Translations under genes and position numbers: made by a program
Notes under the pieces: model-generated
Database searches by the model: none
The model's input: the letters and a program-made list of their open reading frames with translations, nothing else
What the model was told of the DNA's origin: nothing
Part shown: piece by piece, positions 9,848 to 21,414 of the stretch
How the letters are laid out: each line of letters opens with the position of its first letter
How positions within the stretch are numbered: the first letter of the stretch is position 1
IMG/VR virus record: IMGVR_UViG_2541047953_000002
Strand: one strand, 5' to 3'
DNA: 28,241 bases
Source of the DNA: a virus
Lineage: Duplodnaviria; Heunggongvirae; Uroviricota; Caudoviricetes

Positions 9848-10018
9848 ATGTCAGAACGTAAAAACTCAAAATCACGCCGTAATTATCTCGTTAAATGTTC
9901 CTGCCCAAACTGCACCCAAGAGTCAGAACACAGTTTTTCAAGAGTACAAAAAGGTGCCCTTTTGATCTGCCCTCATTGCAACAAAGTATTCCAGACAAAT
10001 CTTAAAACTGTAGCCTGA
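9848..10018 (+). CDS. Small zinc-ribbon protein (56 aa; CxCxxC...CxxC)
   Basis: ORF track 9797..10018; internal ATG with AGGA at ~7 nt; four conserved-looking cysteines. Confidence 0.5.
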   Translation: MSERKNSKSRRNYLVKCSCPNCTQESEHSFSRVQKGALLICPHCNKVFQTNLKTVA

Positions 10019-13063: not shown

Positions 13064-13148
13064 GTAAGCGTAAACTGACCGCCGTATGTAGCCATCAGAC
13101 GAGAATTGGTAACTTAGACGCCCATCTGATATAGACGGACATCTAAGT

Positions 13149-13574
13149 ATGGAATTACAGGACTGGCGAAAAGAACCTCGTAAAAACTATTCGAATGAAT
13201 TCAAACTTCGTATGGTGGAACTGGCATCACAACCTGGAGCTTGTGTTGCACAGATTGCACGTGAAAATGGCGTCAATGATAATGTTATTTTCAAATGGCT
13301 CAGGCTCTGGCAGAACGAAGGGCGTGTTTCGCGGCGTCTTCCGGTAACGACCTCTTCTGACACTGGCGTTGAATTATTACCTGTAGAAATAACGCCGGAT
13401 GAGCAGAAAGAACCTGTGGCGGCCATTGCGCCGTCTTTATCCACTTCCACTCAGACCAGAGTCAGTGCCAGTTCCTGCAAGGTGGAATTCCGTCACGGTA
13501 ACATGACGCTGGAAAATCCATCGCCAGAGCTGCTCACAGTGTTGATCCGTGAACTGACCGGGAGGGGAAGATGA
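13149..13574 (+). CDS. IS66-family accessory protein TnpA (HTH, 141 aa)
   Basis: ORF track; first gene of the IS66 triad; 4-nt overlap with tnpB. Confidence 0.85.
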   Translation: MELQDWRKEPRKNYSNEFKLRMVELASQPGACVAQIARENGVNDNVIFKWLRLWQNEGRVSRRLPVTTSSDTGVELLPVEITPDEQKEPVAAIAPSLSTSTQTRVSASSCKVEFRHGNMTLENPSPELLTVLIRELTGRGR

Positions 13575-13921
13575 TCTCACTCCCATCAGGTACCCGTATC
13601 TGGCTCGTTGCCGGCGTTACCGATATGCGTAAATCCTTCAACGGACTGGGAGAACAGGTACAACATGTGCTGAATGATAATCCCTTCTCCGGTCACCTGT
13701 TTATCTTCCGTGGCCGACGGGGTGACACCGTCAAAATTCTTTGGGCTGATGCTGATGGTCTGTGCCTGTTCACCAAACGCCTGGAGGAAGGCCAGTTTAT
13801 CTGGCCTGCGGTACGTGACGGCAAGGTATCCATTACCCGCTCGCAACTGGCAATGCTCCTCGATAAGCTGGACTGGCGCCAGCCAAAAACATCCAGCCGT
13901 AACTCACTGACAATGTTGTAA
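13571..13921 (+). CDS. IS66-family TnpB (116 aa)
   Basis: Characteristic N-terminus PSGTRIWLVAGVTDMRKSFNGL. Confidence 0.9.
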   Translation: MISLPSGTRIWLVAGVTDMRKSFNGLGEQVQHVLNDNPFSGHLFIFRGRRGDTVKILWADADGLCLFTKRLEEGQFIWPAVRDGKVSITRSQLAMLLDKLDWRQPKTSSRNSLTML

Positions 13922-13951
13922 AAAACTCCTGACCGCATTATAAAAACGGTC

Positions 13952-15565
13952 ATGAGTCAGAAATACCTCATTCGCATCGCAGAGCTGGAAAGGTTGCTCT
14001 CTGAGCAGGCTGAAGCCCTCCGTCAGAAAGACCAGCAACTGAGTCTGGTTGAAGAGACGGAAGCCTTCCTGCGCTCTGCACTGACACGTGCCGAAGAAAA
14101 GATCGAAGAAGATGAACGGGAAATAGAACATCTGCGGGCTCAGATAGAAAAACTGCGCCGGATGCTGTTCGGTACCCGTTCTGAAAAACTGCGTCGTGAA
14201 GTTGAACTGGCTGAGGCTCTGCTGAAACAACGTGAACAGGACAGCGATCGTTACAGTGGGCGGGAAGACGATCCTCAGGTTCCCCGCCAGTTGCGACAGT
14301 CGCGCCATCGTCGTCCGTTACCGGCACACCTTCCCCGTGAAATACACCGCCTGGAGCCAGAAGAAAGCTGTTGCCCGGAGTGTGGCGGTGAGCTGGATTA
14401 TCTGGGGGAAGTCAGCGCTGAACAGCTGGAACTGGTGAGCAGTGCCCTGAAAGTGATCCGCACAGAACGGGTAAAAAAAGCCTGTACAAAATGTGACTGT
14501 ATTGTTGAAGCACCGGCGCCGTCCCGCCCGATAGAGCGTGGTATCGCGGGCCCCGGATTACTTGCCCGCGTGTTAACGGGAAAATACTGCGAACATCTGC
14601 CACTGTATCGTCAGAGTGAAATCTTTGCCCGCCAGGGTGTCGAACTGAGCCGGGCCTTACTCTCCAACTGGGTTGACGCGTGCTGCCAGTTAATGACACC
14701 GGTGAATGATGCCCTGTACCGTTATGTAATGAACACCCGCAAGGTTCACACTGATGACACACCGGTAAAGGTACTGGCACCGGGTCAGAAAAAGGCGAAA
14801 ACAGGGCGTATCTGGACGTATGTCCGGGATGATCGCAATGTGGGTTCGTCATCTCCTCCAGCGGTCTGGTTCGCGTACTCGCCGAACCGGCAGGGGAAAC
14901 ACCCGGAGCAACACCTCCGCCCCTTCCGGGGTATCCTGCAGGCGGATGCGTTCACAGGTTACGACAGGTTGTTCAGTGCAGAACGTGAAGGTGGTGCACT
15001 GACAGAAGTTGCGTGCTGGGCCCATGCCCGGCGAAAAATCCACGATGTATACATCAGCAGCAAAAGTGCGACGGCAGAAGAAGCCCTGAAGCGAATCAGT
15101 GAACTGTACGCCATCGAGGATGAAATACGGGGATTACCGGAGTCAGAGCGTCTTGCCGTCAGGCAGCAGCGAAGCAAAGTGTTACTGACGTCGCTGCATG
15201 AATGGATGGTGGAGAAGAATGGTACGCTGTCGAAAAAATCCAGACTGGGCGAAGCGTTCAGCTATGTACTGAATCAGTGGGATGCCCTCTGTTATTACAG
15301 TGATGACGGTCTGGCGGAGGCGGATAATAATGCTGCGGAAAGAGCGCTTCGTGCAGTCTGTCTCGGAAAGAAAAACTTTATGTTCTTTGGCAGCGATCAC
15401 GGCGGCGAGCGTGGAGCACTGTTGTACGGGCTGATCGGCACCTGCCGTCTGAACGGTATCGATCCGGAAGCGTATCTGCGCCATATCCTGAGCGTACTGC
15501 CGGAATGGCCTTCCAACCGAGTTGACGAACTCCTGCCATGGAACGTAGTACTCACCAATAAATAA
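13952..15565 (+). CDS. IS66-family transposase TnpC (537 aa)
   Basis: N-terminal coiled coil, CxxC...CxxC zinc finger, and conserved CWAHARRK / NNAAERALR motifs. Confidence 0.9.
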   Translation: MSQKYLIRIAELERLLSEQAEALRQKDQQLSLVEETEAFLRSALTRAEEKIEEDEREIEHLRAQIEKLRRMLFGTRSEKLRREVELAEALLKQREQDSDRYSGREDDPQVPRQLRQSRHRRPLPAHLPREIHRLEPEESCCPECGGELDYLGEVSAEQLELVSSALKVIRTERVKKACTKCDCIVEAPAPSRPIERGIAGPGLLARVLTGKYCEHLPLYRQSEIFARQGVELSRALLSNWVDACCQLMTPVNDALYRYVMNTRKVHTDDTPVKVLAPGQKKAKTGRIWTYVRDDRNVGSSSPPAVWFAYSPNRQGKHPEQHLRPFRGILQADAFTGYDRLFSAEREGGALTEVACWAHARRKIHDVYISSKSATAEEALKRISELYAIEDEIRGLPESERLAVRQQRSKVLLTSLHEWMVEKNGTLSKKSRLGEAFSYVLNQWDALCYYSDDGLAEADNNAAERALRAVCLGKKNFMFFGSDHGGERGALLYGLIGTCRLNGIDPEAYLRHILSVLPEWPSNRVDELLPWNVVLTNK

Positions 15566-15595
15566 GCGTCAATACGGTGCTCCGTTGACGCTTAC

Positions 15596-15603
15596 CATTA
15601 GGC
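15596..15603. repeat. 8-bp target-site duplication CATTAGGC (right copy)
   Basis: Matches 13056-13063. Confidence 0.8.
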
Positions 15604-15887
15604 CACTGGCAGGATGTAACATGACGTAATAGCCAGTCGGACAATGCGCCAACGCCGCCAGCAGCACGAATCACCCGTTCGTTACTAAAAAACGGCAGCA
15701 ATGTTTTGTCTTCCGCCAGCGGCTGGCGAACGGCAGGAACGACTCCGGATGGCAGATTACGCATGCTTTTTGGTTCCGGTTCCACCAGCACTCGAGGATT
15801 ATGAAATATCTGTATGGATTCACGGCCCGGCTTAAGGACCACCAGCCCAAGCTCAGGCACCAGAACAGGTCTAAGTAATACCCGCAC
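15596..15887 (-). pseudogene. ydfU: ydfU N-terminal 97 codons (GTG start at 15887 with GGAGG Shine-Dalgarno)
   Basis: Same frame as the C-terminal fragment after removing IS plus one duplication (2540 bp); ORF track 15552..15926 reads into the IS. Confidence 0.75.
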
Positions 15888-15888
15888 G

Positions 15889-16167
15889 TTACCTCCAGAT
15901 CCGTTGCTGGAAAGTGCGGGACGCACGTGGTGGGCGTTCGGAATAAGGCAGCCTGACAGAGATTATCCAGTGCCGATAGTCGAGACTGAGAGCTTTCTTA
16001 ACCTCGAACCCGCGCCTGCGGTAAGAATGAATCAGCCATTCGGCCTGTTCTGCAGTGCATGGAGGGTGCTGGAACCATTCAGACTTGAATGCGTGAGAAT
16101 ACCGCCCGTGCGTGCAGGCAAGAACGGGCGAATTATCAGAATTGTAATATTTTGCGTTGCGTGCCAT
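15889..16167 (-). CDS. Hypothetical prophage protein (92 aa, Trp/Arg-rich), apparently translationally coupled to ydfU
   Basis: ORF track; ATG with GGAGA at ~6 nt; stop lies 1 nt before the ydfU GTG start. Confidence 0.5.
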   Translation of the reverse strand: MARNAKYYNSDNSPVLACTHGRYSHAFKSEWFQHPPCTAEQAEWLIHSYRRRGFEVKKALSLDYRHWIISVRLPYSERPPRASRTFQQRIWR

Positions 16168-16233
16168 CGGTTTTCTCCGGTGGCACGGTGTTACTCAGCG
16201 GGAGTTCAGCCCCGCGCAAGATTGTAGATGAGT

Positions 16234-16485
16234 TTATTCTCCTGAAAAAGCAGAAAAGCCAGCTTTTATTCCGATCTCTTTCAATGCCTGTAATGAAGTG
16301 ACAAACTCACCTTCGCGCAAGATAAATCCGTCCGTGACCCGAGCATCCACAAAATTAATTAACGCAGCCCCATTCTTTCGCAAACACATAATGCGGTAAT
16401 GACTAACAAGATTTCCATTTTCAACGCACACAGCATAGAGGCCATCTTCACAAAAAATTTTACGCAGTTCTTCGATGTTCATCAT
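16234..16485 (-). CDS. rem: Small prophage protein (83 aa)
   Basis: ORF track; length and position (between ydfU and hokD) match K-12 rem from memory. Confidence 0.55.
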   Translation of the reverse strand: MMNIEELRKIFCEDGLYAVCVENGNLVSHYRIMCLRKNGAALINFVDARVTDGFILREGEFVTSLQALKEIGIKAGFSAFSGE

Positions 16486-16596
16486 CAGAATCCTTCCGGA
16501 TAATTAGCTCTCCCCTTTAAGGGACCATCCCTCTTATCCCTGCGCGCTACTTAAGTATTTTTGATTCTATTCCGGCACCGTCCAGAACTTCAAACG

Positions 16597-16633
16597 CGTT
16601 GAAAATAAAAACAAAAACCCGCCGAAGCGGGTT
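16597..16633 (-). terminator. Intrinsic terminator ending the relB-relE-hokD operon
   Basis: Stem aacccgc/gcgggtt with loop cgaa, followed on the minus strand by TTTTTGTTTTTATTTT. Confidence 0.65.
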
Positions 16634-16701
16634 AAGTGCGGGTGCGTTGAGGATGCCTGCCACATCAGAGGTGGCGAGGGATTTCTCCCCCGCCGGGTCT
16701 C

Positions 16702-16857
16702 TTACTCCTCAGGTTCGTAAGCTGTGAAGACAGCGACCTCCGTCTGGCCGGTTCGGATTCGTACCTCGCAGAGGTCTTTCCTCGTTACCAGTGCCGTCAC
16801 TATGACGGTTAAACAGATGACGATCAGGGCGATTAACATCGCCTTTTGCTGCTTCAT
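16702..16857 (-). CDS. hokD: Hok-family membrane toxin (51 aa; HokD/RelF)
   Basis: Manual translation MKQQKAMLIALIVICLTVIVTALVTRKDLCEVRIRTGQTEVAVFTAYEPEE; below ORF-track cutoff. Confidence 0.85.
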   Translation of the reverse strand: MKQQKAMLIALIVICLTVIVTALVTRKDLCEVRIRTGQTEVAVFTAYEPEE

Positions 16858-16928
16858 AGCCTGCTTCTCCTGTCAACGCAAAGCAGAAGTGTCACCTTCG
16901 GTGCGAAACAGAGATGTCATGCTTTGGT

Positions 16929-17216
16929 TCAGAGAATGCGTTTGACCGCCTCGCTATATACTTCCGAGCGTTCTCTTTTCCCAACAGAAATCACGAAAAC
17001 GACAACTTTCTCGTCTATAACCTGGTATACAAGGCGATAGCCTGAAGACCGGAGCTTAATCTTGTAACAATCAGGCATACCACGGAGCTTGTTTGCTTCA
17101 ATCCGGGGTGACTCAAGTACTTCAACCAGCTTCTTTTTCAACTGTTCACGTACCGTCGAGCCCAGCTTTCGCCATTCCTTTAGTGCCCGCTCGTCAAAAT
17201 CCAGAAAATACGCCAT
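16929..17216 (-). CDS. relE: RelE mRNA-interferase toxin (95 aa)
   Basis: ORF track; classic RelE sequence; overlaps the relB stop. Confidence 0.95.
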   Translation of the reverse strand: MAYFLDFDERALKEWRKLGSTVREQLKKKLVEVLESPRIEANKLRGMPDCYKIKLRSSGYRLVYQVIDEKVVVFVISVGKRERSEVYSEAVKRIL

Positions 17217-17455
17217 CAGAGTTCATCCAGCGTCACACGTACTGGCTTAGGATTACGAAGCCGTTCTTTCACTATCTCCACAAGTTCAGCATCTTCATCA
17301 CTCAGGAGTGTCTGTTTGAACGGCAAGCGTTCATTGTCAGCGATATACTCGAGCATGAGACGAAGCGCTTCAGAAGGAGTTACACCCATTTTTTCAAGCG
17401 CGGCGTAAGAACGCGCTTTAAGTTCATCGTCAATACGCAGGTTAATGCTACCCAT
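17216..17455 (-). CDS. relB: RelB antitoxin (79 aa)
   Basis: ORF track; ribbon-helix-helix N-terminus. Confidence 0.95.
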   Translation of the reverse strand: MGSINLRIDDELKARSYAALEKMGVTPSEALRLMLEYIADNERLPFKQTLLSDEDAELVEIVKERLRNPKPVRVTLDEL

Positions 17456-17525
17456 GTCTTACACCTCTTGTAATTACAAATGTCATTACAAGTATCGCAC
17501 TACAACATGCTTAGGGCAAGTCACG
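17456..17525 (-). promoter_or_regulatory. relBE promoter and relO-type operator (12-bp perfect palindrome TTGTAATTACAA at 17468-17479 plus adjacent TGTCATTACAAG repeat)
   Basis: Palindromic hexad repeats seen directly upstream of the relB start; candidate -35 TTGCCC and -10 GATACT. Confidence 0.6.
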
Positions 17526-17785
17526 AAGGAAGTCAGAAAGTAGTCGTAAGAACGGTGATCACTGTCCGCTTTGTGCCAGGAGCAGCCATTGCTAAGTCCA
17601 TCCTGTATTGTGCAGGTCAGCTCGTTTTTAAAGAGTCCGGCCATCATCTTACTGGTACAGACACCATATACTTTGTGACGGTCAGGCTACATATGCACAA
17701 CTCAACTTATTCATCTATTTTTTGCTTTAGCATGTCAGTGTTGCTTTCTCGTCGGCGGGTGAGCGGTGACCTGACCTGTCGATAA
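17480..17785 (+). CDS. ydfV: Hypothetical protein (101 aa); start codon lies inside the relO operator
   Basis: ORF track; length and position match K-12 ydfV from memory; no clear Shine-Dalgarno; may not be expressed. Confidence 0.4.
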   Translation: MSLQVSHYNMLRASHEGSQKVVVRTVITVRFVPGAAIAKSILYCAGQLVFKESGHHLTGTDTIYFVTVRLHMHNSTYSSIFCFSMSVLLSRRRVSGDLTCR

Positions 17786-17937
17786 AGGAACGTAACACGT
17801 TTTATGCAACACCCGCATGCGGCAGAAAATTATTGCCGAACGTTTACCCCTGTCAACAAGCTTTACTTTCTGAGGCGCGCCAGCCCGCGAGGAAAACAAT
17901 CTGAACATCAAACAATTAATGACACAAGAAATACGAT

Positions 17938-17964
17938 TAAAGATTTTTTTGTGCATGCCGATAG
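17938..17964 (+). promoter_or_regulatory. Sigma-28 (FliA) promoter: TAAA-N15-GCCGATAG
   Basis: Near-consensus match to TAAA-N15-GCCGATAA about 25 nt upstream of the flxA start. Confidence 0.65.
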
Positions 17965-17987
17965 TGCTTTTTTAAAAGGAGAAATCT

Positions 17988-18320
17988 ATGTCTGTCACAA
18001 TTCAGGGAAATACCTCAACCGTTATTTCAAACAACTCCGCCCCGGAAGGAACATCAGAAATAGCCAAAATCACAAGACAAATTCAGGTGCTGACTGAAAA
18101 GCTTGGGAAAATCTCATCGGAAGAGGGGATGACGACACAGCAGAAAAAAGAAATGGCTGCATTGGTACAGAAGCAAATTGAAAGCCTCTGGGCTCAACTG
18201 GAGCAGTTGTTAAGGCAGCAGGCAGAGAAAAAGAATGAAGACGCGACAGTTCAGCCTGATAAAAAAGAAGAGAAAAAAGACGATACAAATACCGCTGGCA
18301 CCATTGATATTTACGTCTAA
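17988..18320 (+). CDS. flxA: FliA-regulated protein FlxA (110 aa)
   Basis: ORF track; AGGAG Shine-Dalgarno; sigma-28 promoter upstream. Confidence 0.9.
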   Translation: MSVTIQGNTSTVISNNSAPEGTSEIAKITRQIQVLTEKLGKISSEEGMTTQQKKEMAALVQKQIESLWAQLEQLLRQQAEKKNEDATVQPDKKEEKKDDTNTAGTIDIYV

Positions 18321-18335
18321 GTGACAGCCGTATTG

Positions 18336-18358
18336 TGGCCCTCATCGGGCCACTTTTC
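18336..18358 (+). terminator. Candidate flxA terminator (stem gtggccc/gggccac then TTTT)
   Basis: Seen directly 16 nt after the flxA stop. Confidence 0.45.
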
Positions 18359-18756
18359 GCCATCAGCCTTTTCTTTAAAGACATATTATCTTTGTATCAT
18401 TTCTGATAGTTAACATTACAAGATATAAGTAATGGACGCACTCCCAATTAGTCTATTTAAATCGCCACGAGTTTAACTGACAACCCATGATCAATTATGA
18501 ATTGCAACTATTTCTGTAGTCACTTTTGTGGGGACAGTCCACAAAACTGCCAACTTCCGCTTCTTGCTCTTAGCGGACATTAGCATAGGCTATTTACCAT
18601 AACGCCTCATTACGCGCACCGCCCAGACTGACTCAGCGCGTTTCTGGCATATCCCCGGTAAAACAAGTAACAAACCACCCGAAAATGAACACCAGAAACG
18701 CGACTTAAGAATCTACCCTATGAATGGATATGCACTCAACCGAATCGATCTTGGTT

Positions 18757-20070
18757 TCAATCTTTTTTATCGGGATCAGGCTTCTTTTTAGGTAACTTCG
18801 GGGGCTTAACTTGCTGATGACTTTGCGTTCGGCGCGTAAGCCAGGGATGGTCAGCTTTAGGTTTAACATAGTATTTTGAGCGTAAATCAATACGGGCATT
18901 ATCCACTCGTTCATGGACACTCTTTTCATCATCCAGTGGTATAGGCTCCGGGCCATCAACATACTTTTCCCAGCCCAGCGCTTTCCCGTCATACAGAACG
19001 TTAATTTCACCGTCAAAGTTCTCGCATACAGTAACAACCGAATGCCTAAGTCGATATCCCCGGCCCTCACTGCGTACCTGAAACGCACTGCTTTTGTACT
19101 GGAAAGTGAGATTTTTAGACAGAACGCGCTTCGCCTGTAGGCTGAAGATATAACCCAGTTCCTCTTCAGAATGGTGCACATCAAGATGAGCATTATCAGT
19201 AGTACGAGGCGACGTAGCGAACCGGTTGTTATAGGCTTCAATAAAGGTCGGCAACCATGCATTTGCTGTTTCAATATCACTGATATTCTGAAGCCGCATT
19301 TCTTTGACCAGCCTGTCCTGTAGTGTCTGATTGGCGCGCTCTACCCGCCCTTTTGCCTGCGGGCTGTTGGCATGGATTGGCTCGATGCCCAGTGTCTTTA
19401 TCGCACGAGTGAACTGGGTCAGCTCACCTTCCCGCTCTGGGTTATTTACCCTGAATATACTGTGTCTATCAGAGTAGAGAGCGAGCGGTACGCCATGATC
19501 ATTAAGGTAACCCCGGAGGGTTTCCATGTAAGCCCGGGTTGTTTCAGCAGGCACAAAACGCAACGCCATCAACGCACTGGTGGCATCATCAATGAAAACG
19601 ATCAGTGTACATCTGGGGCCTCGATTTTCAAACCAGTCATGAGGTGAGCCATCAATCTGGATCAGTTCACCGTAAGATGGTCGTCGCATGCGGCGTTGAT
19701 ATATACGGGCAATTTTACGACGGCGTTCACGCCATAACCCCTCTTCTATCATCCACTTTCTGAGAGTTTCAACGGATAAAGATAAACCGTGTATCTCGCG
19801 CAATTTTTCGCACGCAAACGTAGGTCCAAAATCAGCGTAACGGCCTTTGAGGAGTGAAATTACTGTTGCTCTGAATTCAGTAGAAAAGGAATTATTAGGA
19901 CGCTTTCCACGTCGGTGGGAAACCAGACCAGAAGGCCCTTCATTTCTATACCGTTGCACCAGACGTTTAACCTGCCGAATAGAAATGCCAATGCGTGCCG
20001 CAGCTTGTTCCTGAATAATCTGAAGTCGGTGGAGTTCCTTATGACTCATCGTAACAGTCTCTTTGATCAT
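18757..20070 (-). CDS. DDE-type transposase/integrase (rve-like catalytic core, 437 aa); family and element ends unresolved
   Basis: N-terminal HTH, candidate catalytic D-D-E (DGSPHDWF ... DRHSIF ... RVERAN) and a Lys/Pro-rich tail; a 7-bp hairpin overlaps the ribosome-binding site. Confidence 0.8.
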   Translation of the reverse strand: MIKETVTMSHKELHRLQIIQEQAAARIGISIRQVKRLVQRYRNEGPSGLVSHRRGKRPNNSFSTEFRATVISLLKGRYADFGPTFACEKLREIHGLSLSVETLRKWMIEEGLWRERRRKIARIYQRRMRRPSYGELIQIDGSPHDWFENRGPRCTLIVFIDDATSALMALRFVPAETTRAYMETLRGYLNDHGVPLALYSDRHSIFRVNNPEREGELTQFTRAIKTLGIEPIHANSPQAKGRVERANQTLQDRLVKEMRLQNISDIETANAWLPTFIEAYNNRFATSPRTTDNAHLDVHHSEEELGYIFSLQAKRVLSKNLTFQYKSSAFQVRSEGRGYRLRHSVVTVCENFDGEINVLYDGKALGWEKYVDGPEPIPLDDEKSVHERVDNARIDLRSKYYVKPKADHPWLTRRTQSHQQVKPPKLPKKKPDPDKKD

Positions 20071-20404
20071 GAAAAATCCCCCAGAGAATTGTCTGGGGAC
20101 ATTTTAGAATGGTTCAAAGGGGACATTACAGCTTGGTGTTAACAATAGCCTGCTTCTCCGTGCCTTTCGGCACGTAAGAGGCTAACCTACATGTGTCTAG
20201 CATGAAATTGGCCTCAGATTAATGTTAAGCGTCTTGCAGGACGCGTAATGTTAACTGGGGCTTTTCTCTATCTGCCGTTGGTGTCCATGCCCGAGGCAGA
20301 TAGCCTCAAGCACCCGCAGTCATTCTACTTAACTAAGATTTCCCCGCAAACCGTTTTTGTCCAGCACAGTAAATATCCAACTAAACCAATGGAGTTCGCT
20401 GTAT

Positions 20405-20646: not shown

Positions 20647-20701
20647 GGTAATGGTGCCAACTTACTGATTTAGTGTATGATGGTGTTTTTGAGGTGCTCC
20701 C

Positions 20702-20977
20702 GTGGCTTCCATCTCCATCAGTTGTCCCTCCTGCTCAGCTACTGAAGGCGTGGTGCGTAACGGTAAAAGTACTGCCGGACATCAGCGCTATCTCTGCTCT
20801 CACTGCCGTAAAACATGGCAGCTACAGTTCACTTACACCGCCTCTCAGCCCGGTACACACCAGAAAATTATTGATATGGCCATGAATGGCGTCGGATGTC
20901 GCGCCAGTGCACGCATTATGGGCGTTGGCCTCAACACGATTTTACGACACTTAAAAAACTCAGGCCGCAGTCGGTAA
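20702..20977 (+). CDS. insA: IS1 InsA (91 aa)
   Basis: ORF track; matches IS1 InsA as recalled. Confidence 0.95.
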
Positions 20978-21399
20978 ACTCACGCATACAACCGGGCAGT
21001 GACGTCATTGTTTGCGCGGAAATGGACGAACAGTGGGGTTACGTCGGCGCTAAATCACGCCAGCGCTGGTTGTTTTACGCGTATGACAGGATACGGAGGA
21101 CGGTTGTGGCGCATGTATTCGGTGAACGCACGTTGGCCACGCTGGAGCGTCTTCTGAGCCTGCTGTCGGCCTTTGAGGTCGTGGTATGGATGACGGATGG
21201 CTGGCCGCTGTATGAATCACGCCTGAAGGGAGAACTGCACGTTATCAGCAAGCGATATACGCAGCGCATTGAGCGGCATAACCTGAATCTGAGGCAGCAT
21301 CTGGCAAGGCTGGGCAGGAAGTCACTGTCGTTCTCAAAATCGGTGGAGCTGCATGACAAAGTCATCGGGCATTATCTGAACATAAAACACTATCAGTAA
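20896..21399 (+). CDS. insB: IS1 InsB reading frame (expressed as InsAB' fusion by -1 frameshift)
   Basis: ORF track; matches IS1 InsB as recalled. Confidence 0.9.
20953..20959 (+). promoter_or_regulatory. IS1 programmed -1 frameshift slippery motif AAAAAAC
   Basis: A6C run at the insA/insB overlap (established IS1 mechanism). Confidence 0.7.
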
Positions 21400-21414
21400 G
21401 TTGGAGTCATTACC

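Follow-up and report, generated by a model that had tools for sequence, protein, structure and literature searches.

The stretch of DNA analysed here (the window) is the 28,241-nucleotide viral record IMGVR_UViG_2541047953_000002 of the Caudoviricetes, and the subject of this report is a 3,274-bp segment of it that, judging from sequence comparison, is very probably (we put the probability at about 0.9) an IS1202-family, ISEsa1-type transposon with its transposase gene (tnp) at the left end, inserted in the toxin gene hokD. The comparisons show that DDE transposition brought the transposon into the hok/sok locus of a Qin-like lambdoid prophage, where cuts 15 bp apart on the two strands duplicated GGAGAAGCAGGCTAT, the hokD ribosome-binding site (RBS) and start codon. 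The insertion parts the hok leader, comprising the promoter, mok, the Sok target and the Sok gene, from the hokD open reading frame (ORF); hokD, which retains a copy of its own RBS, is now located 71 bp behind relE, and this gives the relB-relE-hokD(relF) arrangement. The family to which the transposon belongs strongly prefers a single site in genes of the hok family, directly 3' of a GGCAA, the sequence closing the hairpin before the hok RBS.

Results

The element occupies window positions 16871-20144 in minus-strand orientation and reads, in the direction of tnp, left inverted repeat (IRL, TGT...), tnp, flxA, ydfV, relB, relE and right inverted repeat (IRR, ...ACA). IRL (20117-20144, minus strand), TGTTAACACCAAGCTGTAATGTCCCCTT, begins with TGTTAAC and is marked by a sharp drop of identity at the TGT in comparison with seven other copies; upstream homology with the copy of a Klebsiella plasmid begins abruptly at TGTTAACACC (window 20144), and its downstream homology fades at about 18552. 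The motif AATGTCCCC is present twice, the outer copy at 20119-20127 and the second at 20095-20103, corresponding to positions 18 and 42 of the left end. IRR (16871-16898, minus strand) reads ...AAGGTGACACTTCTGCTTTGCGTTGACA in the tnp direction, ends with GTTGACA and is identical to IRL at 21 of 28 positions; AGTGTCACC lies at position 18 of this end, and both ends carry an inner TGTC(C/A)CC block. IRR is the best IRL-like site in the whole window, and none of 200 shuffles reached 21/28, the shuffle maximum being 20.

Each repeat abuts one copy of the 15-mer GGAGAAGCAGGCTAT, which occurs exactly twice in the window and once in the empty site L011 described below. The left copy (20145-20159, minus strand) runs from the hokD Shine-Dalgarno (SD) to the AT of the ATG, and the right copy (16856-16870, minus strand) provides hokD with its SD and the first two bases of its ATG, such that the junctions read ...GGCAC GGAGAAGCAGGCTAT, TGTTAAC...(3274 bp)...GTTGACA, GGAGAAGCAGGCTAT GAAGCAG(hokD). 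The initial annotation reported neither terminal inverted repeats (TIRs) nor a target duplication, although IRL and the duplication copy next to it lay within the interval it covered (18600-20200); both repeats and both copies have now been found, and the ends were missed because the right one lies 1.7 kb beyond the ORF, past flxA, ydfV and relBE.

An empty site was assembled in silico from the leader, a single 15-mer and hokD, and 5,426 complete E. coli genomes were scanned with it. The site was contiguous at 99% identity in 2,914 of them, and L011 carries the empty hokD site in the same prophage context, DUF977...hokD-rem-ydfU-Q. Comparison with the empty sites of related prophages, which had been suggested as a means of defining the ends, did define them, the IRL-to-IRR unit being absent from L011. 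A second insertion of the same unit was found in the IncI1 plasmid NZ_CP039299.1, which shares window 16867-20146 and no more. This copy is 99.8% identical, measures 3301 bp as it includes 27 bp that the window copy lacks, and lies inside pndA, flanked by TGGAGGGGCTATGAT (15 bp), with the junctions ...GGCAA TGGAGGGGCTATGAT, TGTTAAC...(3301 bp)...GTTGACA, TGGAGGGGCTATGAT GCCACAG(pndA). The reconstructed pndA empty site is 100% identical in IncI1 plasmids and at least 80% covered in 1,799 plasmid records. As the empty sites match a unit of 3.27 kb and not one of 1.6 kb, the whole IRL-to-IRR segment is the mobile unit and the direct repeats are target duplications.

The best surviving alternative, which we nonetheless regard as very unlikely and as already largely refuted, is an ordinary 1.6-kb ISEsa1 copy that extends from IRL to about 18552, has weak repeats and no duplication, and merely neighbours an unrelated flxA-ydfV-relBE block. 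It agrees with the observation that the sequence common to copies in other contexts stops at 18552-18562, and with the published description of ISEsa1 (1609 bp, TIR 15/22, no target duplication, transposase of 439 aa; Harmer et al. 2023, PMC10132070), in which 439 aa is the 446-aa protein counted from Met8. However, no IRL-like site near 18552 matches at more than 14/28, a value expected by chance, as opposed to 21/28 at 16871, and no duplication flanks the 1.6-kb tnp segment. The control empty site built for that segment alone was found in 0 of the 5,426 E. coli genomes, compared to 2,914 for the 3.27-kb unit; moreover, it was the whole 3.3-kb unit that moved into pndA with a 15-bp duplication of its own, and in every family member a duplication appears only when IRR is placed beyond relBE. 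We therefore take 18552-18562, where homology to L003, L006, L007 and L008 stops, as the inner boundary of a conserved tnp module with different cargo beyond it, and not as the end of an insertion sequence (IS). It follows that the mobile unit is a passenger-carrying transposon of 3.27 kb and not, as had been considered, a new IS of 1.6 kb. The initial annotation further held that a clear match to a catalogued IS, together with defined repeats and a target duplication, would make this an ordinary IS copy; such a match, repeats and duplication do exist, but the element is larger than an ordinary IS.

The tnp gene (18757-20070, minus strand) is a single uninterrupted frame of 437 aa, and its earlier description as a single-ORF transposase with a helix-turn-helix (HTH) and a DDE core proved correct. 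A Pfam search of the protein returned the N-terminal HTH_32, HTH_29 and HTH_28 above their cut-offs together with an rve-type DDE core (rve_3). The catalytic residues D140, D201 and E244, the pair D161/D162 and Q251, seven residues past the E, are all intact and are invariant across nine relatives, down to 43% identity; the signature of the IS1202 family is D...DD...D...E followed by Q, not K/R, at +7 from the E (Harmer et al. 2023, PMC10132070). The protein had been called unclassified, yet it matches the NCBIfam profile NF033594 'ISNCY family transposase' (IS1202 type) with 456 bits (cut-off 250) over profile positions 7-365 of 368, PGAP names its 98%-identical copies 'IS1202-like element ISEsa1 family transposase', and RefSeq labels on identical or 98%-identical copies also include 'ISNCY family transposase'. 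Because of this match and these names tnp is already classified, and by sequence it is an IS1202-family (ISEsa1-type) DDE transposase. The remaining properties of that family are likewise found here: a single HTH and DDE transposase of about 400-500 aa matching the family profile, the signature with Q, imperfect TIRs of about 22-29 bp of the form 5'-TGT...ACA-3' with an inner block near position 20 and a subterminal copy of it, and a duplication of a length specific to one of the subgroups (5-6, 15-17 or 27-28 bp; Harmer et al. 2023, PMC10132070; Siguier et al. 2022; bioRxiv 10.1101/2022.12.17.520857), which is 15 bp in the window. Neither Pfam nor NCBIfam found a tyrosine- or serine-recombinase domain in tnp, the 'integrase core' being the rve/DDE transposase fold.

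PGAP starts tnp of E. coli at Met8 and not at Met1. Residues 1-7 are kept in relatives down to 60-62% identity, and this conservation favours translation from Met1. PGAP also splits the gene (18757-20049; 4458-5750 in L001, for example) into a 'transposase pseudogene, missing C-terminus' and a 'protein YdfW', an annotation artefact, apparently due to the K-12 remnant being a named protein, which conceals an intact gene in hundreds of genomes.

The 27 bp missing from tnp of the window but found in intact copies were lost in frame between two TCAGGA repeats (junction within 20009-20019), taking out nine residues, QESINRHIT, of the first HTH. This segment is present in every relative examined, and the deletion allele is the one found in most E. 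coli Qin copies; Shigella CP182557.1, like NZ_CP039299.1, carries the intact 3301-bp element. Since the first HTH loses nine residues, the window copy is probably non-autonomous; as both its ends are intact, it could be mobilised in trans by an intact copy.

The target is a hok/sok locus. The Rfam model RF01794 'sok' matches 20144-20315 (minus strand) over its full length (1-157) with 104.1 bits (gathering 59; E 1e-23), and the final AUG of the model coincides exactly with the junction. The orphaned regulatory leader (20160-20315, minus strand), consisting of the mok/sokT region and the Sok antisense gene, is severed from its toxin ORF, and the target gene hokD (relF; 16702-16857, minus strand, 51 aa) is found on that strand at a distance of 3.3 kb, past flxA, ydfV, relB and relE, now directly downstream of relE. 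In the empty sites the leader matching Rfam sok and the Hok-family ORF are contiguous.

The genes relE (16929-17216, minus strand), whose stop codon and the IRR tip are 57 bp apart, and relB (17216-17455, minus strand) belong to the conserved right-end module, as do the relBE promoter region and the first 20-39 codons of the passenger gene ydfV (17480-17785, plus strand). The gene flxA (17988-18320, plus strand) is a passenger of the Qin-type version of the transposon and lies within the IRL-to-IRR unit that also moved to the IncI1 plasmid.

That relBE entered the hok locus on its own, either in the form of a minimal toxin-antitoxin operon able to propagate itself or through recombination, homologous or illegitimate, with tnp as an unrelated neighbour, seems to us even less probable than the 1.6-kb IS; a self-entry view of this kind was reportedly put forward by Ramisetty and Santhosh in 2016. 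Published statements that relBE is integrated into hokD and was acquired from plasmids (PMC6379469; PMC5120126) are in line with it. However, a TGT...ACA-type repeat matching the one that precedes tnp lies 57 bp from the end of relE, the limits of the inserted block coincide exactly with a 15-bp duplication of the target, and different sites have different duplicated sequences, a pattern that fits transposition but neither site-specific nor homologous recombination.

Identity to E. coli K-12 is 100% over window 15595-18941, which takes in the same relB, relE and hokD genes (the relBEF locus); beyond it K-12 diverges into ydfX-dicC. Alignment confirmed the suggestion that the window holds an intact counterpart of K-12 intK/ydfW: the 49-aa YdfW is the 3' stump of tnp, and the segment 18757-18906 (minus strand), RefSeq ydfW or the K-12 'intK' remnant, represents the final 49 codons of tnp, whose frame and stop codon it shares. 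Judged by this alignment, K-12 descends from the arrangement of the window by loss of everything left of window 18941, which left ydfW/intK behind. Since IRL, most of tnp and the hok leader are lost there, the transposon origin is invisible from K-12 alone. In the passage of PMC5120126 that cites Gotfredsen and Gerdes (1998), K-12 hokD is described as devoid of upstream control elements and co-transcribed with relBE. K-12 relBE is among the most studied toxin-antitoxin systems, and hokD (relF) has long been an odd hok gene that has no regulatory region of its own; the window keeps the structure that K-12 lost, and both the relB-relE-hokD order and the leaderless hokD follow from one transposon insertion.

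The least credible alternative, a domesticated transposase or a Qin prophage integrase gene with a host or phage function, could appeal to an ORF that is 99-100% identical in ~790 E. coli genomes at the same prophage position and to the K-12 name intK, which presumably hints at an integrase, but the protein has an rve/DDE fold and no tyrosine- or serine-recombinase domain, the transposon ends and the duplication are intact, copies reside in many unrelated plasmid contexts, the same unit moved recently between prophage and IncI1 plasmid, the HTH lesion of the prevalent E. coli allele and the loss of most of the gene in K-12 represent decay, and the flanking repeats vary by site and derive from the target, whereas a phage tyrosine integrase would come with its catalytic domain and an identical att core everywhere.

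Further copies of the transposon were sought in one genome per species, plasmids, metagenomes and viral contigs. With IRR beyond relBE taken as the right end, complete elements are 2.6-12.8 kb long and are flanked by perfect duplications of 14-16 bp. L010, for instance, measures 5938 bp and has a 16-bp duplication, and L009 (CP056442.1) measures 12.8 kb, has a 15-bp duplication and carries a second copy inserted in the regenerated target; cargo and duplications were also found in L013, L015, L016, L019, L022, L023, L024, L028, L029, L030 and L043. The pair relB-relE, near 100% identical in protein to that of K-12, adjoins IRR on its inner side in nearly every enterobacterial member, though not in two copies from Scandinavium, and the exchangeable middle consists of flxA-ydfV, of cytochrome b and a cation-diffusion transporter, or of ncr nickel and chr chromate resistance genes. 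These comparisons show a family in Enterobacteriaceae in which both the left module (tnp) and the right module (relBE and IRR) are conserved and enclose cargo that can be exchanged.

The left flanks of eight copies on different replicons are diverged versions of one sequence, each ending with a small hairpin, GGAG and ATG. Distinct left flanks, drawn from genomes, plasmids, metagenomes and viral contigs, fall into 33 clusters, about 20 of which are hok-type initiation regions that were always entered at the same position. They include hokD, pndA, hokE-like genes and other hok homologues, on IncF, IncHI1B, IncHI2 and IncI1 plasmids and in prophages. At these sites the duplication starts right after the GGCAA closing the hairpin before the hok SD and ends at the start codon, at least 12 different sequences are duplicated, and tnp is co-oriented with hok at all sites but one (L026). 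Base-precise reuse of one position in loci that are 15-40% diverged is not explicable by selection alone. Several of the non-hok clusters, as well as the Hahella copies described below, keep (GG)CAA immediately 5' of the duplication.

A number of points weigh against this interpretation. Thirteen of the 33 flank clusters are not of hok type, and the targeting is a strong preference and not an absolute one; some hok-type clusters may share one insertion through divergence or recombination, which would bring the independent events below 20. The published ISEsa1 values given above conflict with the boundaries found here. The evidence is comparative throughout, and it is by inference alone that we assign an effect on activity to the 27-bp deletion. 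Finally, if translation of tnp starts at Met8, the hairpin preceding the gene (see below) lies 30 nt upstream of the start and does not trap the RBS of that start.

In the copy with the opposite orientation (L026, Citrobacter portucalensis, position 9927; element >11 kb), IRL abuts the reverse complement of GGAGAAGAAGGCCATG and the hok ORF, that is, the same 15-bp target. Tandem insertions were observed in L009 (12206-12222), L162 and also L027 (11527), and as in each case the IRL of a second member directly follows IRR and the duplication of the first element, the regenerated hok site received a further insertion. The second element of L027 comes from another lineage, with 78% transposase identity. 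The left flanks of L003 and L122 have the usual region from GGAG to the duplication, but the hairpin preceding it is TGTGTGAACTTACACA and not GCC...GGCAA, indicating either another type of hok leader or a recombinant flank.

Hahella sp. SMD15-11 (L031-L037, L041, L042, L056) contains at least 10 identical copies of a 1449-bp IS whose transposase is 62% identical to that of the window. Its duplications are 15-17 bp long (ten copies), its ends, TGTTAGCCC.../TGTCAACCC..., resemble those of the window element, the tip TGTCAAC being common to IRR and the right ends of the Hahella IS, and CAA is preferred just 5' of the duplication. From its sequence this IS looks like an active, cargo-free relative. 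Multi-copy relatives are found also in a Rhabdochlamydiaceae metagenome-assembled genome and in Massilia luteola.

The stem that the initial annotation placed over the RBS of tnp (20080-20099) is real. Folding and a terminator-pattern search locate it at 20078-20099 (minus strand), where the inner AATGTCCCC motif pairs with the GGGGGA SD of tnp, followed by a U-run and the ATG. The hairpin has an 8-bp G+C stem extendable to ~13 bp, and the folding energy of the whole tnp 5' region is -26.2 kcal/mol (z = -3.6), a value equalled by none of 200 shuffles. It fits a terminator-like pattern, the stem being followed by AUUUUUCAUG, and an equivalent CCCC/GGGG pairing with different loops is predicted in relatives of 92%, 79%, 62% and 50% identity. 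The hairpin and its U-run would probably act as a terminator of read-through and as an RBS trap, blocking transcription and translation from the hok promoter, a sensible role because the element usually lands with tnp directly downstream of that promoter. A promoter scan of the IRL region revealed no promoter-like site for tnp, the number of sites being that expected from shuffles. We also considered whether the conserved CTTCTGCTTT in IRR serves as an anti-SD that silences the downstream hok, and rejected it: the relE-hok junctions of four elements fold no better than shuffles (z +0.2 to +0.7) and show no consistent pairing of CTTCTGCTTT with the SD.

Where the cargo segment begins there is indeed a perfect 8-bp hairpin (TTTTGTGG/CCACAAAA); it lies at 18524-18546, one base from the 18523-18545 noted earlier. 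It possibly has no function. The window holds 10 such perfect hairpins, ~2.6-fold the 3.8 +/- 2.4 of shuffles, and as a functional signal this one was discarded, having no U-run on either strand and no conservation in relatives with other cargo. Just downstream of hokD a weak Rfam isrK match (16612-16693, minus strand) scores 25 bits, below the gathering score of 50, and is most likely the 3' stem-loop/terminator of the hok mRNA.

Two other insertions lie in the window. An IS66-family element of 2.5 kb (13064-15594; ORFs 13149-13574, 13571-13921 and 13952-15565) is inserted relative to both K-12 and strain W5-6, and the flanking alignments overlap by 9 bp, which suggests a duplication of 8-9 bp. 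An IS1 copy (~20647-21412; insA-like 20702-20977, insB-like 20896-21399) lies ~330 bp upstream of the orphaned hok leader and is missing in otherwise identical genomes such as L001 and L002.

Discussion

Considered as a whole, ISEsa1-type elements may be relBE-armed cargo transposons that seek the hok initiation regions of plasmids and prophages, within a family that tends to use structured landing sites; we give this broader proposal about even odds. The sequence evidence for a relBE-armed, hok-seeking family is strong, and the uncertain part is whether it has been described elsewhere. The IS1202 family with its subgroups, the targeting of dif by one subgroup and the name ISEsa1 are known (PMC10132070), and so are the co-transcription of relBE with hokD and the integration of relBE into hokD (PMC6379469; PMC5120126). 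In the literature searched, which was incomplete, we found no published account of the IRL-to-IRR unit, the 15-bp duplication, relBE as a fixed module or the preference for hok, and, beyond the statement that relBE is integrated into hokD, no described hok-targeting or relBE-carrying IS1202/ISNCY element.

If the proposal is true, each insertion removes a toxin from control by the Sok antisense and makes it part of a new relB-relE-hok operon, and the relBEF operon of K-12 together with its ydfW/intK pseudogene would be the eroded remains of one such insertion. The IS1202 family would then use short structured sites, either dif-like or the hok hairpin with its GGCAA, as safe landing pads on mobile vehicles, and the third branch of the family would gain a target preference, in parallel with the branch that targets dif. 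Nickel, chromate and cation-efflux genes travel with the ISEsa1-type family on IncF, IncHI1B, IncHI2 and IncI1 plasmids of clinical relevance; as nearly all plasmids of this kind have hok loci, a transposon that seeks out hok could plausibly spread such cargo.

IS elements of other families than that of the window element are reportedly found beside hok genes of K-12: IS150 and IS186 are said by Pedersen and Gerdes (in 1999) to lie beside hokA, hokC and hokE. The closest known system is ISEsa1 of ISfinder (IS1202 family, formerly ISNCY or IS1202 group), whose transposase, going by the PGAP names of close copies and by the length of 439 aa, is essentially the same, and whose left end likewise starts with TGT. 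It is catalogued at the length, TIR and lack of duplication cited above and with no target (PMC10132070), whereas the element of the window is 3274 bp long (3301 bp without the deletion; relatives 2.6-12.8 kb), its ends match at 21/28, its duplication belongs to a 14-16-bp class, and it has relBE, cargo and a preferred target. Going by the published values, the catalogued right end is probably the boundary between the conserved tnp module and the variable cargo, which would explain why no duplication was seen. The catalogue entry would be corrected in size, ends, duplication and target.

Harmer et al. (2023; PMC10132070) group the ISEsa1 transposase with ISCARN112 in a small branch apart from ISTde1. 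The ISTde1 subgroup, with its duplications of 15-17 bp, resembles the window element in its TGT termini, an inner motif ~20 bp from the ends and an HTH and DDE transposase of 400-500 aa (bioRxiv 10.1101/2022.12.17.520857), and yet its members are described as plain IS with no target preference. The ISAjo2/ISAba32 subgroup of the same family does show oriented and precise insertion, 5-6 bp from the XerC arm of dif-like sites that are often plasmid-borne, and like the window element it uses a short structured target site and no accessory targeting proteins; it differs in its dif/pdif target, its 5-6-bp duplications and a transposase of ~41% identity to that of ISEsa1 (PMC10132070). The 'transporter IS' ISKpn21, ISKpn65 and ISRel10 also combine an IS1202-family transposase with extra genes between the repeats, one hypothetical gene each, as compared to a fixed right-end toxin-antitoxin pair and up to ~10 kb of exchangeable cargo, including metal-resistance operons, in the family described here. 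Lastly, a TnsB-related DDE transposase (Harmer et al. 2023), TGT...ACA termini, repeated end motifs, cargo and site-selective insertion recall Tn7-like elements. However, these are recognised by TnsA, TnsC, a target selector such as TnsD, TnsE or CRISPR and a 5-bp duplication, and the only genes that accompany tnp are flxA, ydfV, relB and relE; the window element is not a member of that group but a single-protein system that duplicates 15 bp of its target.

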